The notes under the pieces were generated by a model. The model was not told the DNA's origin, searched no databases, and worked only from the letters and a program-made list of their open reading frames with translations. From the NCBI GenBank assembly GCA_049297495.1, contig JBAQUL010000014.1:6359-70358 (forward strand): 64,000 nucleotides of DNA, written 5' to 3'. The DNA comes from Candidatus Moraniibacteriota bacterium (GTDB lineage: Bacteria; Patescibacteriota; Minisyncoccia; Moranbacterales; UBA2206). The translations under genes were made by a program, and so were the position numbers. The stretch's first letter is position 1, and every line of letters begins with the position of its first letter. Below, piece by piece: positions 1 through 8,300 of this stretch.

Positions 1-306
1 ATCCACAATCCCATTCCCATCCTCATCTGCAACGATATATATTTCTGGGATATTTGGATGGGGATCGTTTGGGTCCAATAGTCCATCGCCATCACTGTCC
101 TTTTCAATAATTGTTTTTGTGCTGACATTTGTTGTCGTCTTTGTTTCGGTTTTTGCTGAACTACTATTTGAACTATCACGCTCTTCCGAAGAATGCTCTT
201 TTTCATCATCATCGTCATCATCATCGGCCACGACAAAATTTAACGAAGCCAAAAAGGCCACTAGCGATAGAGTGAATAGCAAATAAAATCTTGATCTTTT
301 TTGCAT
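1..306 (-). CDS. Partial (N-terminal) secreted acidic protein with thrombospondin-type-3-like Asp-rich Ca-binding repeats; runs off the window start
   Basis: Own minus-strand translation from the ATG at 304-306 gives MQKRSRFYLLFTLSLVAFLASLNFVVADDDDDDDEKEH...DSDGDGLLDPNDPHPN...DEDGNGIVD. It has a signal-peptide-like N-terminus and DxDxDG motifs. It is not in the ORF track because it is truncated at the window edge. Confidence 0.4.
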   Translation of the reverse strand, partial: MQKRSRFYLLFTLSLVAFLASLNFVVADDDDDDDEKEHSSEERDSSNSSSAKTETKTTTNVSTKTIIEKDSDGDGLLDPNDPHPNIPEIYIVADEDGNGIVD

Positions 307-315
307 ATTTTTTAT

Positions 316-630
316 TTATGATACTTTCGTCGTTTTGCTGCTCGAACCGGATGAACTGGGCTTAGTTACGGTATTATTGGTTGTGGTTGTGATTTGCTGT
401 TTTTTCAACTCCTGTGGCGTGCTATTTAGCGCACGCAGCTTATTCTCCCGATCAGCGGAAATAGCATCCTGAGAAGCCATTATATTCGGATCAATCGGGT
501 CAAGCGTCGAGTTAGTTTCCGTCTTCATTATTAAACTTTTCTGGTCTTGATTTTTAATCACAAGCACCGCAATAGTCATCAGAAGAATATTAATCACAAA
601 GACTAAAATTTTATTGAGATGTTTTTGCAT
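316..630 (-). CDS. Hypothetical small membrane/secreted protein with a Ser/Thr-rich C-terminus
   Basis: ORF of 104 aa with one hydrophobic helix near the N-terminus and a low-complexity T/S-rich tail. No recognisable domain. Confidence 0.3.
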   Translation of the reverse strand: MQKHLNKILVFVINILLMTIAVLVIKNQDQKSLIMKTETNSTLDPIDPNIMASQDAISADRENKLRALNSTPQELKKQQITTTTNNTVTKPSSSGSSSKTTKVS

Positions 631-686
631 AATATTTCTACTTAGCTACTATGGCGAACCTCGGAAAAGTATACCACAAAAAACCC

Positions 687-1391
687 TTAACGTCTAACTC
701 CCATCTTTTCAAAATTTTTCGAAATTTTGTCCTGTATCTTCTCCAGATCAATCTTTTTGCCTTTCGTTTTTAGTTTTAGCTTTTTATCCAAAATCACATC
801 TTCGCGATATTCTTGTAGATAATAGGCCTTTGCTCCGGCTATCCACTTGGCTATTTCCAAAAAATCTTTCTCTGTGTGGATGCCTGGAACGACCGTCGTG
901 CGAAATTCATAAGGCACTCGGCCATTTCTAATCAACTCGACGCTCAACTTTATCCGCTCAGTATCCACTTTCACTCCAACAGTTTTACTATAGTTTTTTA
1001 GTTGATTTTTTATGTCCATTGCCACAAAATCCAACAGTTTTAAATCCAACAGTTTTTTTAAGATATCCGGCCGAGCACCGTTTGTATCGAGTTTGATGCG
1101 AAATCCCAAGGCGCGCACTTTTTTGATGAACTCAATCAAATCCGGTTGCAAAGTTGGCTCTCCGCCCGTAATGCAAACGCCGGCCAATTTCCCCACTCTT
1201 TTTTTGAGAAAAGCAAAAAATTCTTGCTCAGTCTTATTTTGGGTCCCTGAAGCAATTTGACCAGCGCCCAAGACAAGTTCCGGATTATGGCAAAATGGAC
1301 AACGAAAATTGCAACCAACTGTGAAAACAGTAGTCGCCAGAGTTCCGGGAAAATCAATCAGAGTTAATTTTTGATAACCGCCTATATTCAT
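687..1391 (-). CDS. nrdG: Anaerobic ribonucleoside-triphosphate reductase activating protein (radical SAM)
   Basis: GCNFRCPFCHNPEL radical-SAM CxxxCxxC motif typical of glycyl-radical activases. Lies immediately downstream of nrdD on the same strand. Confidence 0.8.
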   Translation of the reverse strand: MNIGGYQKLTLIDFPGTLATTVFTVGCNFRCPFCHNPELVLGAGQIASGTQNKTEQEFFAFLKKRVGKLAGVCITGGEPTLQPDLIEFIKKVRALGFRIKLDTNGARPDILKKLLDLKLLDFVAMDIKNQLKNYSKTVGVKVDTERIKLSVELIRNGRVPYEFRTTVVPGIHTEKDFLEIAKWIAGAKAYYLQEYREDVILDKKLKLKTKGKKIDLEKIQDKISKNFEKMGVRR

Positions 1392-1440
1392 TCTAATTAT
1401 GTCTACTTATTCTTGTAAACTTTTCTTGGACTAGAAAGCT

Positions 1441-1600
1441 CTTCCTCATCCAAAGCCCTCAAATTTTCAATTTCAAATTTTCAATTTTCAATCAATGTCT
1501 AATGATTTAATTTTAAAATTAGAAATTTAGTCATTGGGGTTTGTTTAGAAATTTGAAATTGGAAATTAGAAATTTGAGCGAAATATTAAAGGCAAAAAAA
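1441..1600. repeat. Oligo-repeat element of GAAATTGGAAATT-type units in inverted arrangement (family F3, copy a)
   Basis: aaattttcaatttcaaattttcaattttcaatc ... gaaatttgaaattggaaattagaaatttgag. The same unit recurs at 14521-14560, 46598-46637, 57296-57368 and 57548-57700. Confidence 0.55.
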
Positions 1601-1679
1601 TCATATCCTATTACCTTCTTTAAAAATCAGGACGACACCAGCCATAATGACTAATGTCGCCCCGCCATCTTTCTTTGTT

Positions 1680-1943
1680 TTAGCAAACGCAAGCTGCGTC
1701 ACCCACTTTGAATTCCTTACGATCATCAAATTCTGCCTGCTTGCCACCATTCCATTGCGCTACCGGTCTAATATAACCCACGACGCGCGAATAGACTTCC
1801 GTTCTTTGAAAATTTCGCAGAACCGGATCTGCCTCATGACAGCTTTTGCATTTGCAAAACTCACCGCTCTCCATCACATAATTCATGAATTCTTCATTAT
1901 TCTCAAGCTCTCGGCCACAATCATGGCAAATTTGTTTTTGCAT
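1680..1943 (-). CDS. Stand-alone paralog of the NrdD C-terminal Zn-ribbon plus glycyl-radical domain (87 aa)
   Basis: Protein ends TEVYSRVVGYIRPVAQWNGGKQAEFDDRKEFKV, near-identical to the NrdD C-terminus (TEVYSRVVGYIRPVAQWNGGKQEEFCDRKEFKV). It has its own CxxC...CxCxxC cluster. About 110 nt are ~85% identical to nrdD 2040-2150. Confidence 0.55.
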   Translation of the reverse strand: MQKQICHDCGRELENNEEFMNYVMESGEFCKCKSCHEADPVLRNFQRTEVYSRVVGYIRPVAQWNGGKQAEFDDRKEFKVGDAACVC

Positions 1944-2013
1944 ATTTTTTTAATCTTACTAGGCGTAATTTTAATTTCGTCTAATAAAATATTTTTTATT
2001 TGTTATATTATAT

Positions 2014-4278
2014 TTAAACTTTTTGTTTGCCTTTTACTTTGAATTCCTTACGATCACAGAATTCTTCTTGCTTGCCACCATTCCACTGTGCGACTGGACG
2101 GATGTAGCCCACAACGCGCGAATAGACTTCTGTTTTTTGCTCCATCACGCATTTTGGACAAAAGGGATGCTCACCATTGATGTAGCCATGTACCGGGCAG
2201 ATACTGAAAGTTGGAGTGAGTGTGAAATATGGTAAGGCGTAATTTTCGGCAATCTTTCGCACCAACTGCTTGGTCGTTTCAATGTCCCAAATTCGTTCGC
2301 CCAAAAATCCATGCAGCACCGTTCCTCCGGTATATTTTGTTTGCAATTTATCTTGCAGATCCAGGGCCTCAAAAATATCTTCCGTGTGATGGACGGGCAG
2401 CTGAGAAGAGTTGGTATAATATGGCTCAGCGTTTTTGTCTTTCACATTAGCATTGTTGGCAAAAATAATTTCTGGATGCTTTTTACGATCAATTCGTGCT
2501 AAGCGGTACGATGTGCCCTCAGCAGGAGTGGCTTCCAAATTGTAGAGGTTGCCGGTTTCTTTTTGATACCCGATAATTCTTTGACGCATATGCGTTAGAA
2601 TTTCTTCCGCCATCTTCTGTCCGGCCGGAGTGGTGATATCTTTCCCAATCAGGTTAAGTAGAGCTTCATTCATTCCAATCAGGCCAATGGTGGAGAAATG
2701 ATTAGCCCAATACTGCCCACGACGCATCTTGATTGGAGCAAGGTAGAATTTGGTGTATGGATAGAGCCCGCCTTCAGTCAGTTTTTCCACCATTGTTCTT
2801 TTTGTTTCCAGACTCTCTCTGGCCAAGTCCATCAAATGATTCAATTTTGTCAAAAACTCCTTTTTATTCTTGGCAACATGTCCCAAACGAGGCAGATTGA
2901 TTGTCACAACCCCAATCGAACCTGTGAGCGGATTGGCTCCGAAAAGCCCACCACCGCGCTTATGCAGTTCCCTATTATCCAAGCGCAAGCGACAACACAT
3001 TGAACGAGCATCATCGGGATCCATATCAGAGTTCACAAAATTAGCAAAGTATGGGATGCCATATTTAGCTGTCATTTCCCAAATCGCATCAAATCTTTTG
3101 TCAGTCCAGTCAAAATCCTTGCCGATGTTATAGGTCGGAATCGGGAACGTGAAAATCCGCCCATTCGCATCCCCCTCGGTCATCACTTCCGCAAAAGCTT
3201 TATTAATCACATTCATCTCCTCCTGAAATTCTCCATAAGTTTCTTTCTGAGGAAAGCCCCCAAAAACCACCGCCTCATTTTTCAAATTCTTGGGACAAGT
3301 GATGTCCATCGTAATATTGGAAAACGGTGTTTGAAAACCAACGCGGGTAGAAACATTCATATTGAAAACATAGGACTGAATTTCCTGCTTCACTTCTTCA
3401 TAAGTCAGTTTGTCATAGCGCACAAACGGAGCGAGCAATGTGTCAAAATTTGAAAATGCCTGTGCGCCTGCCACCTCGCCTTGCGTGGTATAGGTGAAAT
3501 TCACCATCTGACCCAAAATTGAACCTAGGTGCTTGGCGGGTTTACACGCCACTTTTCCCGGAACGCCAGTAAAGCCCCGTCGGAGAAGATCTTGCAAATC
3601 CCAACCACAACAATAGGCTGCAAGCAATTGCAAGTCATGAATATGAAAATCCCCTTCCTCATGTGCTTCGCGAATGGCTTTTGTATAGACCCGATTCATC
3701 CAATATTTCGAACTAACAATGGATGATATGTAATTATTCAACCCCTGGAGAGAATAGGCCATGTTGGCGTTTTCCTTCACCTTCCAGTCAATCTCTTGAA
3801 TATATTTATCCACCAGGTTCACAGCCTCATCCAGAGATTGCTCTGCCTCACGCACCTTTCTATGTTGCTCACGATAAAGAATATAGGCCTTGGCAGTTTC
3901 TTCAAAATCCAAGATCATGAGCACTCTTTCCACCAAGTCTTGAATTTCTTCAATCTCCGGCACATAGCCTTCCTTGTGTTTTCGACCGAGTAGTTTTACT
4001 ACTTTTTCTGTTACCTTTTTGGCATCATCCACTGTACCTTCTTTGGTTGAAGAAAGCGCCTTAGCAATCCCTTTAGCAATCTTACCTTCATCAAAATTAG
4101 CAATAACGCCATTGCGCTTGATGACTTTTTTGATCTTAATCGCATTTGCTATTTCTTTTTTCACAACCTTAACCACCACTTTTTTGGCAGCTTCCCCCTT
4201 TTTACTGTTCAGTTTCTTTCCCCCTGTTTTTGGACTGACCTTCTTTCCCCCGTTTTTTTTCTTTTTGTTTTGCACCAT
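2014..4278 (-). CDS. nrdD: Anaerobic (class III) ribonucleoside-triphosphate reductase with a Lys-rich N-terminal tail and ATP-cone
   Basis: 754 aa. Lys-rich N-terminal tail, ATP-cone (VIKRNGVIANFDEGKI), C-terminal Zn-ribbon cysteines and a glycyl-radical loop RVVGY. Followed by nrdG. Confidence 0.9.
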   Translation of the reverse strand: MVQNKKKKNGGKKVSPKTGGKKLNSKKGEAAKKVVVKVVKKEIANAIKIKKVIKRNGVIANFDEGKIAKGIAKALSSTKEGTVDDAKKVTEKVVKLLGRKHKEGYVPEIEEIQDLVERVLMILDFEETAKAYILYREQHRKVREAEQSLDEAVNLVDKYIQEIDWKVKENANMAYSLQGLNNYISSIVSSKYWMNRVYTKAIREAHEEGDFHIHDLQLLAAYCCGWDLQDLLRRGFTGVPGKVACKPAKHLGSILGQMVNFTYTTQGEVAGAQAFSNFDTLLAPFVRYDKLTYEEVKQEIQSYVFNMNVSTRVGFQTPFSNITMDITCPKNLKNEAVVFGGFPQKETYGEFQEEMNVINKAFAEVMTEGDANGRIFTFPIPTYNIGKDFDWTDKRFDAIWEMTAKYGIPYFANFVNSDMDPDDARSMCCRLRLDNRELHKRGGGLFGANPLTGSIGVVTINLPRLGHVAKNKKEFLTKLNHLMDLARESLETKRTMVEKLTEGGLYPYTKFYLAPIKMRRGQYWANHFSTIGLIGMNEALLNLIGKDITTPAGQKMAEEILTHMRQRIIGYQKETGNLYNLEATPAEGTSYRLARIDRKKHPEIIFANNANVKDKNAEPYYTNSSQLPVHHTEDIFEALDLQDKLQTKYTGGTVLHGFLGERIWDIETTKQLVRKIAENYALPYFTLTPTFSICPVHGYINGEHPFCPKCVMEQKTEVYSRVVGYIRPVAQWNGGKQEEFCDRKEFKVKGKQKV

Positions 4279-4334
4279 AGCATTTTTTAATTGTTAATTA
4301 TATTGAAAAAAATTATTTTTTAATTTGTATATTT

Positions 4335-4423
4335 GCCTGCCTGCGCTCCGTGCGCCACCGCTAAAGCTTTAGCGACACACGGTCGGCCATAGCCTTTGGC
4401 GGCGTGCTACCGGTAGGTAGGTA
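4335..4423. repeat. GCCTGCCTGC...CCGGTAGGTAGG palindromic element (family F4) with an internal gctaaagctttagc palindrome
   Basis: gcctgcctgcgctccgtgcgccaccgctaaagctttagcgacacacggtcggccatagcctttggcggcgtgctaccggtaggtaggta. Related short palindromes occur at 46309-46333, 46446-46470 and 57647-57669. Confidence 0.45.
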
Positions 4424-4434
4424 ATTCGTAGTAT

Positions 4435-4884
4435 CTATTTATCAAACGTATCCAATTCTCTTTTGAAACTTTCAATATTGGAAAATGATTTATAGACGCT
4501 GGCAAATCGCACGTAAGCTACTTCATCCAATTCCCGCAGTTTTTTGAGAATAATCTTGCCAATTTCCTTCGTGCTTATCTCTGGTTTTTCCTTGGTACGA
4601 ATTTCATATTCCACCTCTCCGATAAATTGGGTAATTTTTTCTTCCGTCACTGGACGTTTTTCCAGCGCCTTTCTCACGCCGGTCTCAATCTTAGTTTTGT
4701 CGTAATCCACTTTGAGGCCACTCTTTTTCAACACACTTAACCGCAAAAGCTCTATTTCTTCATAGGTACTGAAACGCGCCTCGCATTTCAAACATTCTCG
4801 CCGCCGTCGCGTGATTTTGCCCTCATTAGTTTCTCGCGAATCAACGACCTTTGTTTCAGTGTTGTAGCAAAACGGACAATTCAT
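4435..4884 (-). CDS. nrdR: Transcriptional repressor NrdR (Zn-ribbon plus ATP-cone)
   Basis: MNCPFCYNTETKVVDSR...CLKCEARFSTYE zinc ribbon followed by an ATP-cone. Adjacent to nrdDG. Confidence 0.9.
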   Translation of the reverse strand: MNCPFCYNTETKVVDSRETNEGKITRRRRECLKCEARFSTYEEIELLRLSVLKKSGLKVDYDKTKIETGVRKALEKRPVTEEKITQFIGEVEYEIRTKEKPEISTKEIGKIILKKLRELDEVAYVRFASVYKSFSNIESFKRELDTFDK

Positions 4885-4900
4885 ACTTTTTTTCCTTTTT

Positions 4901-4916
4901 ATACTATATATAGTGT
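4901..4916. promoter_or_regulatory. NrdR box (palindromic operator) 17 nt upstream of the nrdR start
   Basis: The reverse complement of atactatatatagtgt is ACACTATATATAGTAT, matching the NrdR-box consensus acaCwAtATaTwGtgt. Confidence 0.5.
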
Positions 4917-4983
4917 ACCGCCATAGAATTATACCACAACCGAAATTCCTGACAAGGGGTGCATTCTAAGCCAAGAAACGGAG

Positions 4984-4992
4984 TTATCCACA
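4984..4992 (+). promoter_or_regulatory. Perfect DnaA-box 9-mer (TTATCCACA) about 100 nt upstream of nrdR, within the recurring 12-mer AGTTATCCACAG
   Basis: gagttatccacagggg. The same 12-mer is at 47553-47564 and 58264-58275. Confidence 0.3.
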
Positions 4993-5071
4993 GGGGAGAA
5001 TCATGATTTACAACTACGAAAATATTATGGCATATTTCTATTCGAAAATCATCAAACCTAAGGCCAACGGG

Positions 5072-5314
5072 CTACTTTCCCCGCATTCCCAATTTCGCCG
5101 CAATAATCACCAAAGGGCAATAGCCAGTCAAGGAAAAATTGACCAGCATTGCACCAACCAACAAGGCAAAATATTGGAAATTGAAATATCCTGCCAACGA
5201 CATAAGTACCGAAAAAACAACAAGCAAACCCGCAACCAAAAACACTACCCTTTCCAGATACCAATGATCAATATTTTGACGATAGATTTTTTTAGACATA
5301 TTTTTTATTTTCAA
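5072..5314 (-). CDS. DUF2892/YgaP-like small inner-membrane protein
   Basis: 80 aa with two TM helices and a GYCPLVIIAAKLG motif typical of DUF2892. Confidence 0.5.
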   Translation of the reverse strand: MKIKNMSKKIYRQNIDHWYLERVVFLVAGLLVVFSVLMSLAGYFNFQYFALLVGAMLVNFSLTGYCPLVIIAAKLGMRGK

Positions 5315-5328
5315 AAACTATTTTTTAA

Positions 5329-8300
5329 TTATTCCTGCACAGATTTATCCCATTTTTTATGTTCAGAAATGTAATAAGCGATGGGAAAAATGACGAGCGT
5401 GAGAAAAGTTGATGCGGATAGGCCGAAAATAAGTGACCAGGCTAGTCCTTCCCAAACTGGATCAGAGATGATTGTGAGTGACCCCAGGATAGCTGTTAGA
5501 GAGGTCAGCATGATTGGCAGGAGGCGTATCCGTCCTGTTTCAATCAACGCCTCCATCAGGGGTCGCTTTTGTTTTCTGAGCGGTTCCAGATATTTCAGGA
5601 AAATTACCGTATTTTTGACGGAAAGTCCCGCCAGAGCAATCACGCCAATCATCGAAGTTGCGTTGAAATAGGTGCCTTTGATCGCGTTTAAAATCGCAAA
5701 TCCTGGGAAAACTCCAATCAGGCCAAGCGGGATACTCACCATCAAAAGCAGCGGAAGGAATAACGATTCAGATTTAGCTGCCAGCACAAAATATATAAGG
5801 AAAATTGCCACACCCATTGCCAAACCTAAATCACGAAAAACTTCTAGCGTTAATTTCCATTCTCCACCGAGCTGGGCGAAATAATGTTTTCCTGTTTGCA
5901 AATCTTCATACTCTGCCCCAAGCAAATTCCAACTCACAAGCTTTCCCTTTCCATCAGGAAGTTTGTAAGCAATCAGTTTTGGGAAAAAATCAATGACTGC
6001 ATACACGATGCTTCGATCTTGCATTTCTGCGCTAAGGTACGTAGTGGGCCGACGATCATCAGACAAAATTGGCAGATCGGTCGCCACATTTGTTTTTTCG
6101 ATGATTTCCAATAGCGGAATGCCAGTGCCATTTCGCGAAGGAATTTCAATCTTCGACAAATCAGCTTCGCTATCGCGATCATCTTTCGCGAGACGAAGAA
6201 TAATATATTCCTGTTCCGGTTTTCGCAAATCTTCCCTAGTTGCCTCGTGATACAAGCCAATTGCAGCGCCCGATAGTGCGGTATGCAAAAGCGCGGAAAC
6301 ATCACTTGGCGCCACTCCTAAGAGCTCTGCTTTATCAGTCCGAACACGATAGGTATAGTCCAATGTCCGCTCCTTGGTTGATCGATCAATATCAGTCACA
6401 CCACGAATGCCCGCCATGTCAGATTCAAAATCACGCGCTATCTGTTCTCGCACCTTCTCATCATCCCCTTTTACCTTCAGTAAAAATGTTGCGAGAACCG
6501 GTGGTCCAGGTGGATCTTCGACGACTCGCATTTGCGCATTAGGATGCTCCAGGAGAAACCCTTTCGTCCCTGTCACAACTTCCTGGGCAATTTTTTCCGA
6601 ACTGTGTTTGCGTTCATCAATTCCCGTAAGATTCACCCGCAGCGTCGCTTGATTTTGAAAAAATCGAAAGGAACTGCCTCGAAATAAACCATTAAAATCC
6701 ACTATGGGCGACTCCCCGACGAAGCTTTCAATATTTTTTACTTCTGAGTTTTCTAAAATCAGTTCCTCGAGCGATTTGGCTATCGACCGAGTTTCTCCGA
6801 CGGCAGTGCTAGATGGCAAATCAATATAGACATACAATTGCTCCTTATCCGCTTTGGGAAGCATACGGAAAGGAACCAAGGGAGATAATGGCAAGATAAG
6901 TGAAATAACAAAAACAGCAAAAGTAACGGCGATTATTGTTTTGCGCCGCTTATTCGTTTCCAAAAATGCAGCGAGTAGTTTGGCGTAACGCTCTTCAACT
7001 TTTTTGAAAATCCGGAAAAAAAATCCATCTTCATAGCTCTTCTTTTTTGTTAAATCTTTGGGAGTGAAAATCAGTGCCAAAAAAGGATTAATGGAAACAG
7101 AGAAAATGAGCGAGACAAAAAGTGCCGTCGGCACAAAAAATGGGATGGGTGCCATATAAGGTCCCATCATACCACTCACAAAAGCCATCGGGATAAACGC
7201 AATCGCCATGGTAAGTGTAGAAAGTGCGAGTGCCCCTCCCACCTCATCCACAGCCCGCACGATGAGCCTCACACGATTCTCATTTGGATAGAGGCGAAAA
7301 TAGCGGGCCACATTCTCAATGACTACGATGGCATCGTCAACCAAAAGTCCCAGGGATAAAATAAGCGCAAATAGTGTGATACGATTTACCGTTTGCCCAA
7401 AGAGTAGTCCCACGCCAAAAACCGCCAAAAGAACCAAGGGAATGGAAACCGAAGCCATCATCGCATTGCGAAAACCCAAAAACATCATCAGGAGAACAGC
7501 CACAACAAGAATGGATTTCAAAAGGTCAAAAGTAAGCTTTTTAATTTCTTCGCTCGCGGTCTTGCCTTCATCGCGCAAAACCGAAACATTCGTCTCAGAA
7601 GAAAGCAGAGAGCCCCTCAGTGTTTCCAATTTTGCCAAAGCATTTTTTGAAACTGTTGTTGCATTAGTCCCTTTAAGCTTGGAAAGTGCGATATGCACAA
7701 CAGGAACTTCGCCCTGATCTTTTTGAGTCAACGTGACAAAGCTAGTGATCTCTCCTGGTCCATAAGTAATCTTTGCAATATCTCCCAAGCGGAGAATGGA
7801 CGTTCCTTCATGCCTCAGGACCAAGTCTTCCAAATCCTTAACTCCCCGAATATTCCCCGAAACATTCAAAATTGGATTTTGCGTCTGCCCTTCAATCGGA
7901 TTAACACTAAAAACAGAATTCGCTCCCATAATCGCTCCCATGACTTCCGAGAGAGAGATGTTTCGCGCTGAAAGTTCGCCGACGCGTGGTTCAACAAAAA
8001 GATGATTTATGCGTCCGCCTTTAATTTCCACCTTTGATACCCCCTCAGCCTGCTTCAACTCATCAGAAACATCGAAAGCCACCTTGCGCAGGGATCCTTC
8101 AGACAATGTTTTAGAAGAAAGACCGATATCCAAGATTGGCACATCATCAGGGTCGATTGATTGCACGACAGGATTCATTGCTCCAGCCGGCTTTAGACCA
8201 ATATTGTCTTGCAATTTCTGGTTCAATTCAATCTTAGCATCTTCTCGGTTTGATCCGACCAAAAATTTCACGGTCACGACGCTGCGACCACCGGGAAAAG

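Follow-up and report, generated by a model that had tools for sequence, protein, structure and literature searches.

The window, the 64,000-nucleotide stretch of Candidatus Moraniibacteriota DNA analysed here, carries a class III RNR gene cluster that is read entirely from the reverse strand. The cluster is headed by nrdR (4435..4884), which encodes an ATP-cone/Zn-ribbon repressor (Pfam Zn_ribbon_NrdR, 8e-19; ATP-cone, 1.2e-19) and has a promoter-like site at 4955-4928; the GC-rich segment at 4320-4434 folds no better than shuffled sequences (z -1.3). It is followed by nrdD (2014..4278), whose 754-aa product is a full-length class III RNR catalytic subunit (Pfam NRDD, 1.4e-195; ATP-cone, 6.7e-22; 1077 bits against NCBIfam NF006126, exceeding the cut-off) made up, from N- to C-terminus, of a Lys-rich segment, an ATP-cone, a barrel with an SMCCRLRL finger loop, a CPVH...CPKC (Cys/His/Cys/Cys) ribbon and a glycyl-radical domain (GRD). 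Downstream of nrdD is a small gene (1680..1943) that we annotate, from the ORF call and a match to Pfam NRDD, as an 87-aa autonomous NrdD-type glycyl-radical protein consisting of a Zn ribbon, a GRD and a Cys-containing C-terminal tail. Sixteen nucleotides past its stop codon lies a terminator-like hairpin (1628..1664, reverse strand; 17 pairs, then a run of T), for which an alignment shows a GC counterpart kept in relatives L001, L002 and L005, and which would thus end an nrdD-small gene transcript ahead of nrdG. The last gene, nrdG (687..1391), encodes a radical-SAM activase (Pfam Radical_SAM, 4.7e-23; TIGR02495 NrdG2, 212 bits, exceeding the cut-off) that presumably charges the radical glycines of both NrdD (G724) and the small protein (G56); a promoter-like site ahead of it (1390..1419, reverse strand; TTTACA-18-TAGAAT) was called by consensus match alone. 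An Rfam search of positions 1-6000 gave no real match, which counts against an intron or riboswitch at the junction of nrdD and the small ORF, and an intron is excluded by the conserved coding signal in the Zn-ribbon half of the small gene.

The earlier note on this DNA had reported that the tail of nrdD is duplicated in a separate 87-aa ORF at about 85% nucleotide identity, and we recover this repeat: positions 1705-1808 and 2036-2139 align over 104 nt without gaps at 84% identity (89/105, or 85%, if two 1-nt gaps are allowed). At least 87 matches in 104 positions would arise by chance with a probability of about 1e-29 at p=0.3 (about 5e-20 after correction for all offsets in 64 kb), and the stretch TEVYSRVVGYIRPVAQWNGGKQ is identical in the two proteins. 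The copy at 2036..2139 is NrdD's own GRD, with G724 at codon 2107-2109, and the copy at 1705..1808, which contains TEVYSRVVGYIRPVAQWNGGKQ, is the GRD half of the small gene, with G56 at codon 1776-1778 (both on the reverse strand, and both codons read straight from the sequence). The duplication extends to the GRD half only; the Zn-ribbon half (1839..1928, reverse strand; codons 6-35) matches nothing in nrdD at the nucleotide level. The ribbon that had been claimed is present, but its ligand set requires correction: across 103 sequences the invariant cysteines are C6, C9, C32 and C35 (CHDC...KCKxCH), and C30 of the 'CKCKSC' first put forward is not conserved. In the same 103 sequences residues S52, R53, G56, Y57, I58, R59 and P60 of the GRD half are invariant, and as SRVVGY this segment fits the glycyl-radical fingerprint RVxG[FWY].

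With its GRD spanning residues 46-80 of 87, the small protein is essentially a stand-alone glycyl-radical domain. It matches positions 509-562 of the 562 in Pfam NRDD (PF13597; E=1.5e-12, 47.4 bits, where the gathering score is 26.2), the sole Pfam match at E<=0.1, with no match to Gly_radical. NCBIfam returns only the C-termini of NrdD models (for example, 38 bits against TIGR02487, whose cut-off is 326). Because the profile match covers the last 54 positions only, the NrdD barrel with its finger-loop cysteine and its substrate and effector sites is absent from the 87-aa protein. An AF2 model (mean pLDDT 78.6) places beta-hairpins at 4-6, 19-24 and 27-32 and a helix at 33-38 in the Zn-ribbon half, followed in the GRD half by a strand (49-52), the G56 loop, a second strand (57-60) and a helix (61-71). 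Foldseek comparison of this model with the PDB returned just weak similarities to Zn-ribbon ribosomal proteins (best E 0.026), and a profile search of PDB sequences with the small protein returned none at E<=0.01.

The small gene belongs to a large family in Patescibacteria (CPR): we found 612 homologous clusters (80-113 aa, 60-92% identity) and confirmed 588 stretches of the gene in species genomes, among them the complete genome of a named strain, Minisyncoccus archaeiphilus PMX.108 (L069), an organism that grows in co-culture. The ORF is intact in the close relatives (loci L001-L007, L081-L083 and L106), and the order nrdR-nrdD-small gene-nrdG is kept in approximately 70 loci. Most of the loci L001-L069 that reach far enough have nrdG downstream of the small gene, and eight loci lack nrdG over a distance of about 5 kb (L014, L062, L065, L067, L068, L071, L073 and L074). 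Purifying selection is strong, with dN/dS of 0.02-0.1 for both halves of the gene, a pN/pS of 0.18 for the Zn-ribbon half, and dN of 0.064 against dS of 1.42 for the paralogous GRD pair in the window. Small-protein distances follow those of the NrdD core (Spearman 0.79).

Many of the NrdDs encoded next to the small gene lack a GRD of their own. Such proteins (34 of the 69 NrdDs adjoining the small gene) end at a median of 16 residues past CPxC, without RVVGY, and all 34 retain SMCCRLRL together with the other catalytic motifs. The losses are polyphyletic on the tree, with at least six independent events, and in L005, whose NrdD is 93% identical to that in the window, a clean deletion of about 120 nt removes exactly the GRD. 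In a sample picked by NrdD, not via the small gene, the small gene is adjacent to 16 of 16 GRD-less NrdDs versus 20 of 55 full-length ones (Fisher p=3.6e-6). The strict association with GRD-less NrdD argues that the small protein can provide the radical in trans, and suggests that what it contributes to NrdD is the radical-bearing tail; the 35 of 55 related full-length NrdDs without an adjacent small gene suggest that the module is dispensable to the full-length enzyme. The resulting two-piece architecture (an NrdD core without GRD, an adjacent small gene and nrdG) is found in relatives such as L005, L008, L009, L020 and L111-L127, but not in this window, where NrdD retains its GRD. Collapse of the repeat can be rejected as a source of GRD-less NrdDs: it would fuse nrdD to the GRD of the small ORF, L005 retains the whole small ORF and lacks the nrdD copy only, and the GRD-less tails vary among lineages.

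Where both copies of the GRD are present, they resemble each other within a genome more than between genomes. The small GRD shares 91% identity with the NrdD GRD of its own genome, versus 82% with those of other genomes (median rank 1/35), and lineage-specific residues are common to both copies (for example, RIVGY..NAGK.EEY), so that by these comparisons the two copies evolve in concert. Some pairs are 93-98% identical at the nucleotide level, and part of the co-variation is therefore plain gene conversion, which means homogenisation and not necessarily a common docking site.

Nothing in the window's own cluster ties the small gene to oxygen stress; the evidence for such a tie is the gene neighbourhood of a sister subfamily (at least 584 clusters). 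There the gene immediately follows one of the Fur family, for which PerR models give the best scores, and Fe/Mn SOD, rubrerythrin or desulfoferrodoxin lie further downstream. The promoter of these genes is conserved and contains AT-rich palindromic hexamers; the canonical Bacillus PerR box (TTATAATnATTATAA) was not found above the level of shuffled sequences upstream of the Fur-family genes. At one sister-subfamily locus class I nrdAB is next door. Genes for stand-alone GRD proteins of NrdD type are also present on verified phage contigs, and neither nrdD nor nrdG lies within 6 kb of them. They fall into several architectures, including proteins of 110-135 aa that combine an N-terminal helix with a long Zn ribbon, and proteins of 45-65 aa that consist of the GRD only. 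A cluster look-up of the long-class proteins returned no names or taxa. A protein search that asked whether genomes with the sister subfamily also encode nrdD returned NrdDs named Portnoybacteria, Parcubacteria and Paceibacterota, whose GRDs share the 'QQWH.GK' signature; this is a protein-level match and not a genome-level link.

The earlier note had proposed a GrcA-like role for the small ORF, and the proposal gains from each of these lines: GRD losses that occur only beside the small gene, GRDs that change in concert, PerR-like/SOD operons and phage copies. With the conservation, selection and synteny described above, all of them observed at the sequence level, they make it probable in our judgement that the 87-aa ORF is a functional free-standing glycyl-radical module of class III RNR, acting in this genome as a GrcA-like spare. 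The small gene would be co-transcribed with nrdD, and NrdG would take a hydrogen from G56, which is predicted to sit in the same SRVVGYIRP hairpin as G724 of NrdD and, as in NrdD, beside a Zn ribbon, leaving a glycyl radical. The radical hairpin and its helix could then dock in the NrdD barrel at the site of NrdD's own C-terminal GRD, where the hairpin would adjoin the finger-loop cysteine of SMCCRLRL, and catalysis would proceed as usual. Oxygen irreversibly cuts glycyl-radical enzymes at the radical glycine, and the one repair known for such damage is GrcA/YfiD, which serves pyruvate formate-lyase. Since NrdD here retains its own GRD, the module would serve as a replacement, taking the place of a cis GRD that has been cut at the glycine by oxygen or has not been radicalised; its use in a full-length NrdD would require an intact cis GRD to leave the barrel first. 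In many sister lineages, in which the cis GRD is deleted, the module would be the enzyme's sole radical carrier.

In the alternative that best survives these data, class III RNR would be a two-piece enzyme that routinely draws its radical from the small protein, or an evolutionary intermediate; the NrdD-borne GRD of genomes like this one would be redundant and on the way out, and oxygen damage would play no specific part. Loss of the cis GRD is indeed complete in about half of the lineages, the window gene lies within the nrd cluster and not in a stress operon, and the ratio of small-protein to NrdD-core distance hardly differs between genomes with full-length NrdD (1.55) and those with GRD-less NrdD (1.54), so that, by this measure, the small protein is constrained equally whether or not NrdD retains its GRD. 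Yet in genomes with both copies the GRD motif of NrdD is kept in 35 of 35, which together with a paralogue pN of 0.06 against a pS of 0.57 indicates that the cis GRD is not drifting; the state with both copies is found across deep branches of the tree, and the PerR/SOD operons of the sister subfamily point to a stress role. We regard this alternative as unlikely, and infer a spare rather than a constitutive-subunit role in this genome.

Less plausible again is a role as a regulator or buffer, in which the small protein would be a decoy substrate of NrdG, a radical reservoir or a chaperone-like adaptor between NrdG and NrdD, and never the catalytic radical site. The position of the gene between nrdD and nrdG would suit such a role, as would the combination of a Zn ribbon with a Gly hairpin, taken to be the elements that NrdG needs to generate the radical. 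It leaves unexplained, however, the radical source of the otherwise intact and conserved GRD-less NrdDs, whose invariable association with the small gene requires a supplied glycine, and phage copies without a nearby nrdG are a better fit to a supplied part; we hold it to be improbable. We give still less credence to a different partner (another glycyl-radical enzyme, or an RNR-unrelated function of the Zn ribbon such as nucleic-acid binding): sister-subfamily and phage genes do not lie beside nrdD and one sister locus neighbours class I nrdAB, but the GRD is solely NrdD-type in Pfam and NCBIfam, it tracks the NrdD GRD of its own genome, and no other glycyl-radical enzyme gene occurs in the neighbourhoods examined (nrd-cluster and sister-subfamily loci). 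Finally, the reading raised in the earlier note as its alternative, in which the ORF is what a tandem duplication at the 3' end of nrdD left behind and is decaying without function, has the 104-nt repeat itself in its favour and can be set aside with near certainty, because hundreds of family members are intact, the gene is found in all closest relatives and in conserved order, the non-duplicated Zn-ribbon half is conserved, and dN/dS is low in both halves with saturated dS.

A spare-part module thus stays our preferred reading of the small gene, which would be a widespread candidate spare part for anaerobic RNR, the source of DNA precursors in anaerobes, and the first candidate outside pyruvate formate-lyase (PFL). 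The repeated natural deletion of the cis GRD amounts to the key experiment already run by nature, and makes the question directly testable. The module may help to explain how the ultra-small, host-dependent Patescibacteria maintain DNA synthesis through oxygen exposure, it offers a minimal substrate of 45-90 aa for the study of NrdG target recognition and GRD docking, and it points to phage auxiliary genes of a new class. By a slight balance of probability we also favour a broader joint reading: a large unrecognised superfamily of autonomous NrdD-type glycyl-radical proteins in Patescibacteria and phages, which would comprise the first spare-part system not of PFL type, naturally two-piece class III RNRs, versions that oxidative stress induces by way of a PerR-like regulator, and phage mini-GRDs of 45-65 aa that re-arm oxygen-damaged host NrdD in the course of infection.

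Database entries of 85-145 aa named 'anaerobic ribonucleoside-triphosphate reductase' (from CPR metagenome assemblies and, as AJP62049.1, from ANMV-1 virus) are the same proteins, auto-named by homology with a label that suggests a reductase or part of a reductase. In the literature searched, no paper recognises them as a stand-alone family in their own right or describes them as spare parts, and neither NCBIfam nor PHROG has a model for them; spare parts are known for formate lyases only, and PMC13450708 (a 2026 review) and PMC8683613 leave it as an open question whether other glycyl-radical enzymes have them. The homologous region of known proteins is the NrdD C-terminus (phage T4, Thermotoga maritima and Streptococcus thermophilus), which has the same order of metal site, strand, Gly loop, strand and helix. 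The small protein differs in not being covalently joined to the barrel, in a ribbon with a 20-residue insert and CxxC...CxxC ligands (versus CPVH...CPKC in this NrdD), and in a conserved Cys-containing C-terminal tail that is absent from this NrdD. According to PMC12662201, the GRD of NrdD swings out of the core to be activated by NrdG, and a GRD that comes as a detachable piece is plausible on that ground.

The closest functional parallel is GrcA/YfiD of Escherichia coli, likewise a small free-standing copy of the C-terminal radical domain of a large glycyl-radical enzyme with an RVxG[FWY]-type motif, which receives its radical from the activase of that enzyme and then replaces the oxygen-cleaved GRD (PMC13450708, PMC8683613); we propose, by analogy, the same logic for the small protein and NrdG. 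Natural GRD-less NrdDs end approximately where oxygen would cut. They often retain a short E-[YF]-x-x-[VA] strand, reminiscent of the strand that cleaved PFL must retain for rescue by YfiD (PMC13450708). By domain assignment, the small protein is an analogue of GrcA and not a homologue: it belongs to NRDD (PF13597) and not to Gly_radical/PFL (PF01228; GrcA, InterPro IPR011140), and its GRD is preceded by a folded four-Cys Zn ribbon, whereas the N-terminus of YfiD is disordered. Its partner NrdD, moreover, is GRD-less in many lineages, in which the module would therefore be obligatory, a state not mentioned for PFL in PMC13450708 or PMC8683613. The phage genes that stand without nrdD or nrdG nearby recall Y06I of bacteriophage T4, a virus-encoded autonomous GRD for a host enzyme; Y06I is PFL-type, whereas the phage proteins described here are NrdD-type and come in several architectures, and the gene in the window is cellular.

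The four minus-strand genes between window positions 600 and 4900 are nrdR (4435-4884), nrdD (2014-4278; 754 amino acids, with Pfam ATP-cone and NRDD matches, E 1.4e-195, and NCBIfam NF006126 above cut-off), the 87-amino-acid ORF (1680-1943; positions 509-562 of the 562 in Pfam NRDD, above the gathering score) and nrdG (687-1391; Radical_SAM, with TIGR02495 NrdG2 above cut-off). Because a terminator-like hairpin of 17 pairs (1664-1628) lies directly 3' of the small ORF and nrdG is preceded by a promoter-like site of its own, nrdD and the small gene are probably co-transcribed as a single transcript. Most of the 288-nt spacer before nrdG is occupied by an imperfect palindrome (1458-1578; 56-nt arms, 75% complementary, AAATTT/GAAATT-like units) that occurs once in the window; it is missing in the close relatives at loci L001 and L005, whose spacers are much shorter, and therefore looks like a lineage-specific insertion. 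From the nrdR stop to the nrdD start (4320-4434) runs a GC-rich stretch amid AT-rich surroundings; it has no Rfam match, and its folding does not exceed that of shuffled sequences (z -1.3). Ahead of its ATP-cone, NrdD carries about 48 residues of Lys-rich, low-complexity sequence at the N-terminus (residues 1-48; 4135-4278), and similar, variable extensions are found in relatives.

As the earlier note had claimed, the nrdD tail is duplicated in the separate ORF: the repeat (1705-1808 versus 2036-2139) spans 104 nt at 84% identity, against a chance expectation of about 5e-20 for the whole window. Residues 46-80 of the small protein repeat the NrdD tail, and TEVYSRVVGYIRPVAQWNGGKQ is the same in both proteins. 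The N-terminal half, for which nrdD holds no nucleotide counterpart, is a Zn ribbon; its description as a four-Cys ribbon stands for C6, C9, C32 and C35, the ligands conserved in family alignments, but not for C30 (in CKCKSC), which is not conserved. In an AlphaFold2 model (mean pLDDT 78.6) ribbon hairpins (residues 4-32) and a helix (33-38) are followed by the glycyl-radical domain (GRD) as a strand (49-52), a loop with the radical glycine G56, a strand (57-60) and a helix (61-71). An NrdD GRD would be expected to have the layout seen in this model; no structural match to a solved NrdD tail was obtained.

At 34 of the 69 loci that were picked by the small gene and have an intact adjacent NrdD, that NrdD lacks a GRD of its own, ending a median of 16 residues past CPxC without the RVVGY motif (the window NrdD has its radical glycine 14 residues past CPKC). 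The GRD-less NrdDs are 690-770 amino acids long and keep the SMCCRLRL finger loop (34 of 34), together with a Zn ribbon of their own and the remaining conserved motifs, which rules them out as pseudogenes. A neighbour-joining tree of NrdD cores shows them to be polyphyletic, the GRD having been lost independently at least six times; in the latest loss, at L005, an NrdD 93% identical to the window's has suffered a clean deletion of about 120 nt, exactly the GRD, and the small ORF is untouched. Since this sample had been chosen by the small gene, we drew a second with NrdD as query (metagenome contigs L081-L160), obtaining 71 informative loci, two of them corrected by eye. Here the small gene was adjacent to 20 full-length NrdDs and not to 35, and the corresponding counts for GRD-less NrdDs were 16 and 0 (Fisher p = 3.6e-6). 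Class III RNR needs a glycyl radical to function, as is established for the family (see also PMC12662201), and for this reason the small protein, judging by gene content, must supply the radical in trans in GRD-less lineages. The window's small protein has the same family and gene position as in those lineages.

At least one Cys stands within the last 8 residues of 52 of 69 small proteins, often paired (AC-C, CC); the small ORF ends ...GDAACVC (1680-1700), the window NrdD's tail has no Cys, and a few GRD-less NrdD tails (L030, L039, L042 and L068) end CC or CCK. Such a Cys-bearing tail, which recalls the pairs of Cys at the C-termini of class I/II RNRs, could be redox-active or metal-binding. 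In one complete Moraniibacteriota genome (CP064994.1; L063, 2581-4810) nrdD is split into three ORFs of 421, 125 and 241 amino acids, which could be a pseudogene or assembly indel errors; the small GRD gene (4986-5324) is unbroken, with nrdG about 1.8 kb downstream. Related NrdDs of 1015-2034 amino acids also exist (protein-search entries P0449 and P0476; contigs L200, L206, L215 and L222); those with Pfam data have intein/LAGLIDADG domains (PF14528, PF14890), and they are therefore read as intein-interrupted nrdD genes of CPR and viral contigs.

Among the 35 genomes holding both copies, the small GRD matches its own genome's NrdD GRD at 91% and those of other genomes at 82% (median rank 1 of 35), and lineage-specific residues are common to both copies (for example, RIVGY...NAGK.EEY or ...SQWNEGKQ.EF.ER). 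Own-pair nucleotide identity ranges from 0.70 to 0.98; both occasional gene conversion and longer-term co-evolution are behind the pair similarity. Distances between small proteins track those between NrdD cores (Spearman 0.79), and the small/core divergence ratio stands at 1.55 where NrdD is full-length versus 1.54 where it is GRD-less; by this measure the module is equally constrained where seemingly redundant and where indispensable. Such sequence comparisons suggest that the module and the cis GRD (NrdD's own copy) fit one and the same NrdD socket.

The reading that we favour, with fair though not strong confidence, is that NrdG would install the radical on G56 and the module would dock into the NrdD barrel where the cis GRD normally sits; its role in this genome would be to substitute for a GRD cleaved by oxygen or carrying no radical, and in GRD-less lineages it would be the only radical carrier. 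Natural truncated NrdDs stop about where oxygen cleavage would cut, and many retain a short E-[YF]-x-x-[VA] strand, which recalls the strand retained in cleaved pyruvate formate-lyase (PFL) and required for rescue by YfiD. A limit to the favoured reading is that 35 of the 55 full-length NrdD relatives have no adjacent small-gene copy. It is conceivable, if unlikely, that the small protein is a constitutive subunit and the cis GRD the redundant part. A decoy, reservoir or adaptor for NrdG is improbable and would leave the GRD-less enzymes unexplained, and we give still less weight to service to some other partner.

Searching 5.8 billion proteins with the small protein gave 612 clusters at E<=1e-3; the top 120 of these are all 80-113 amino acids long, 60-92% identical and under CPR names; the nearest database relatives are from metagenome-assembled Candidatus Moraniibacteriota (Patescibacteria/CPR) genomes. 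Scanning genomes, one for each species, confirmed 588 stretches, and such ORFs, which the earlier note had proposed seeking beside nrdD in related genomes, do occur there, the order nrdR-nrdD-small-nrdG recurring in about 70 of the 80 loci kept. Purifying selection, likewise raised, is borne out: across a set made up of the window and its seven nearest relatives, the Zn-ribbon half and the GRD half each show dN/dS of 0.02-0.1, and pooled pN/pS is 0.17, dS being almost saturated. Between the window's two GRD copies dN is 0.064 and dS 1.42, and both are old and held by selection. The clusters, the syntenic loci and the dN/dS values refute a decaying duplicate, to which we attach practically no credence.

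A sister subfamily (95-110 amino acids), not adjacent to nrdD, comprises at least 584 clusters, and some of them bear the name Staskawiczbacteria. Its gene directly follows a Fur-family gene, often overlapping it, at four of seven genome-scan loci (those without nrdD within 5 kb) and in six of six further look-ups; PerR models score this regulator 35-45 bits above Fur or Zur models, though still below their curated cut-offs. Downstream are Fe/Mn superoxide dismutase, or rubrerythrin and desulfoferrodoxin, and conservation extends to the operon's promoter, where an AT-rich hexamer/palindrome block covers the -10 box and continues past it. These surroundings, an association found at relatives' loci rather than in the window, are those expected for a part needed after oxidative damage. 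Between the small GRD and superoxide dismutase genes of the PerR-like operon lies a tiny conserved ORF of 52-58 amino acids with no Pfam match (L242 8328-8504; L243 1679-1855; L244 8337-8495; L248 4311-4484). L242 also holds class I RNR nrdA (with ATP-cone) and nrdB (2419-5988), 2 kb from this operon, and its organism therefore has an oxygen-dependent RNR as well. Directly upstream of the Fur-family/GRD pair, two loci have a reverse-transcriptase gene (RVT_1, 350 amino acids; L245 6536-7588; L246 475-1527). At L070, L072 and L078 (around position 5000) the small GRD gene has neither nrd nor recognised oxidative-stress genes as neighbours, L070 and L072 having a common neighbourhood that includes an FAD-type oxidoreductase-like ORF.

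Searched with a profile, a set of 1.84 billion representative proteins yielded 3906 matches at E<=1e-3, of which 508 reach E<=1e-10, and the top 150 all measure 42-159 amino acids; in one class among the matches (110-135 amino acids) the ribbon is longer and there is a helix at the N-terminus. Genes of this kind occur on about 36 IMG/VR contigs, and neither nrdD nor nrdG lies within 6 kb of them. About 20 more of these viral contigs encode GRD-only mini-proteins of 45-65 amino acids, a short basic leader and then CEVYSRVVGYLRPVxQWNxGKxxEFxDRK, without the Zn ribbon; contigs of this sort (around position 6000 of L198, L201, L209, L212, L214, L219-L224, L228, L233, L238 and L239) show no NrdD-like ORF within 6 kb. 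Eight viral contigs checked are real phages (portal, major head, terminase, tape-measure, endolysin and Mu-like transposase genes), and L198, L212, L221 and L233 are the confirmed phages among the mini-protein contigs. The one GenBank case, AJP62049.1 of archaeal virus ANMV-1 (KP703175.1; 144 amino acids; L241 5914-6348), is auto-annotated 'anaerobic ribonucleoside triphosphate reductase' and is actually a stand-alone Zn-ribbon and GRD protein of the long class; its gene lies in hypothetical-gene surroundings, with a prohead protease close by.

No NCBIfam or PHROG model covers the small protein, and full-text searches of openly accessible literature found nothing that describes an NrdD GRD as stand-alone or split. 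According to recent reviews, spare parts are validated for PFL only, other glycyl-radical enzymes being an open question (PMC13450708, PMC8683613). What seems new is the apparent extension of the known spare-part principle to another class of enzyme, together with a putative two-piece RNR architecture. Phage-borne NrdD-type GRDs parallel Y06I of T4, a phage-borne PFL spare part. In its proposed working the small protein resembles GrcA/YfiD, the E. coli spare part for PFL, but it stands outside that family (NRDD, not Gly_radical), and where the N-terminus of YfiD is disordered it has a folded Zn ribbon.
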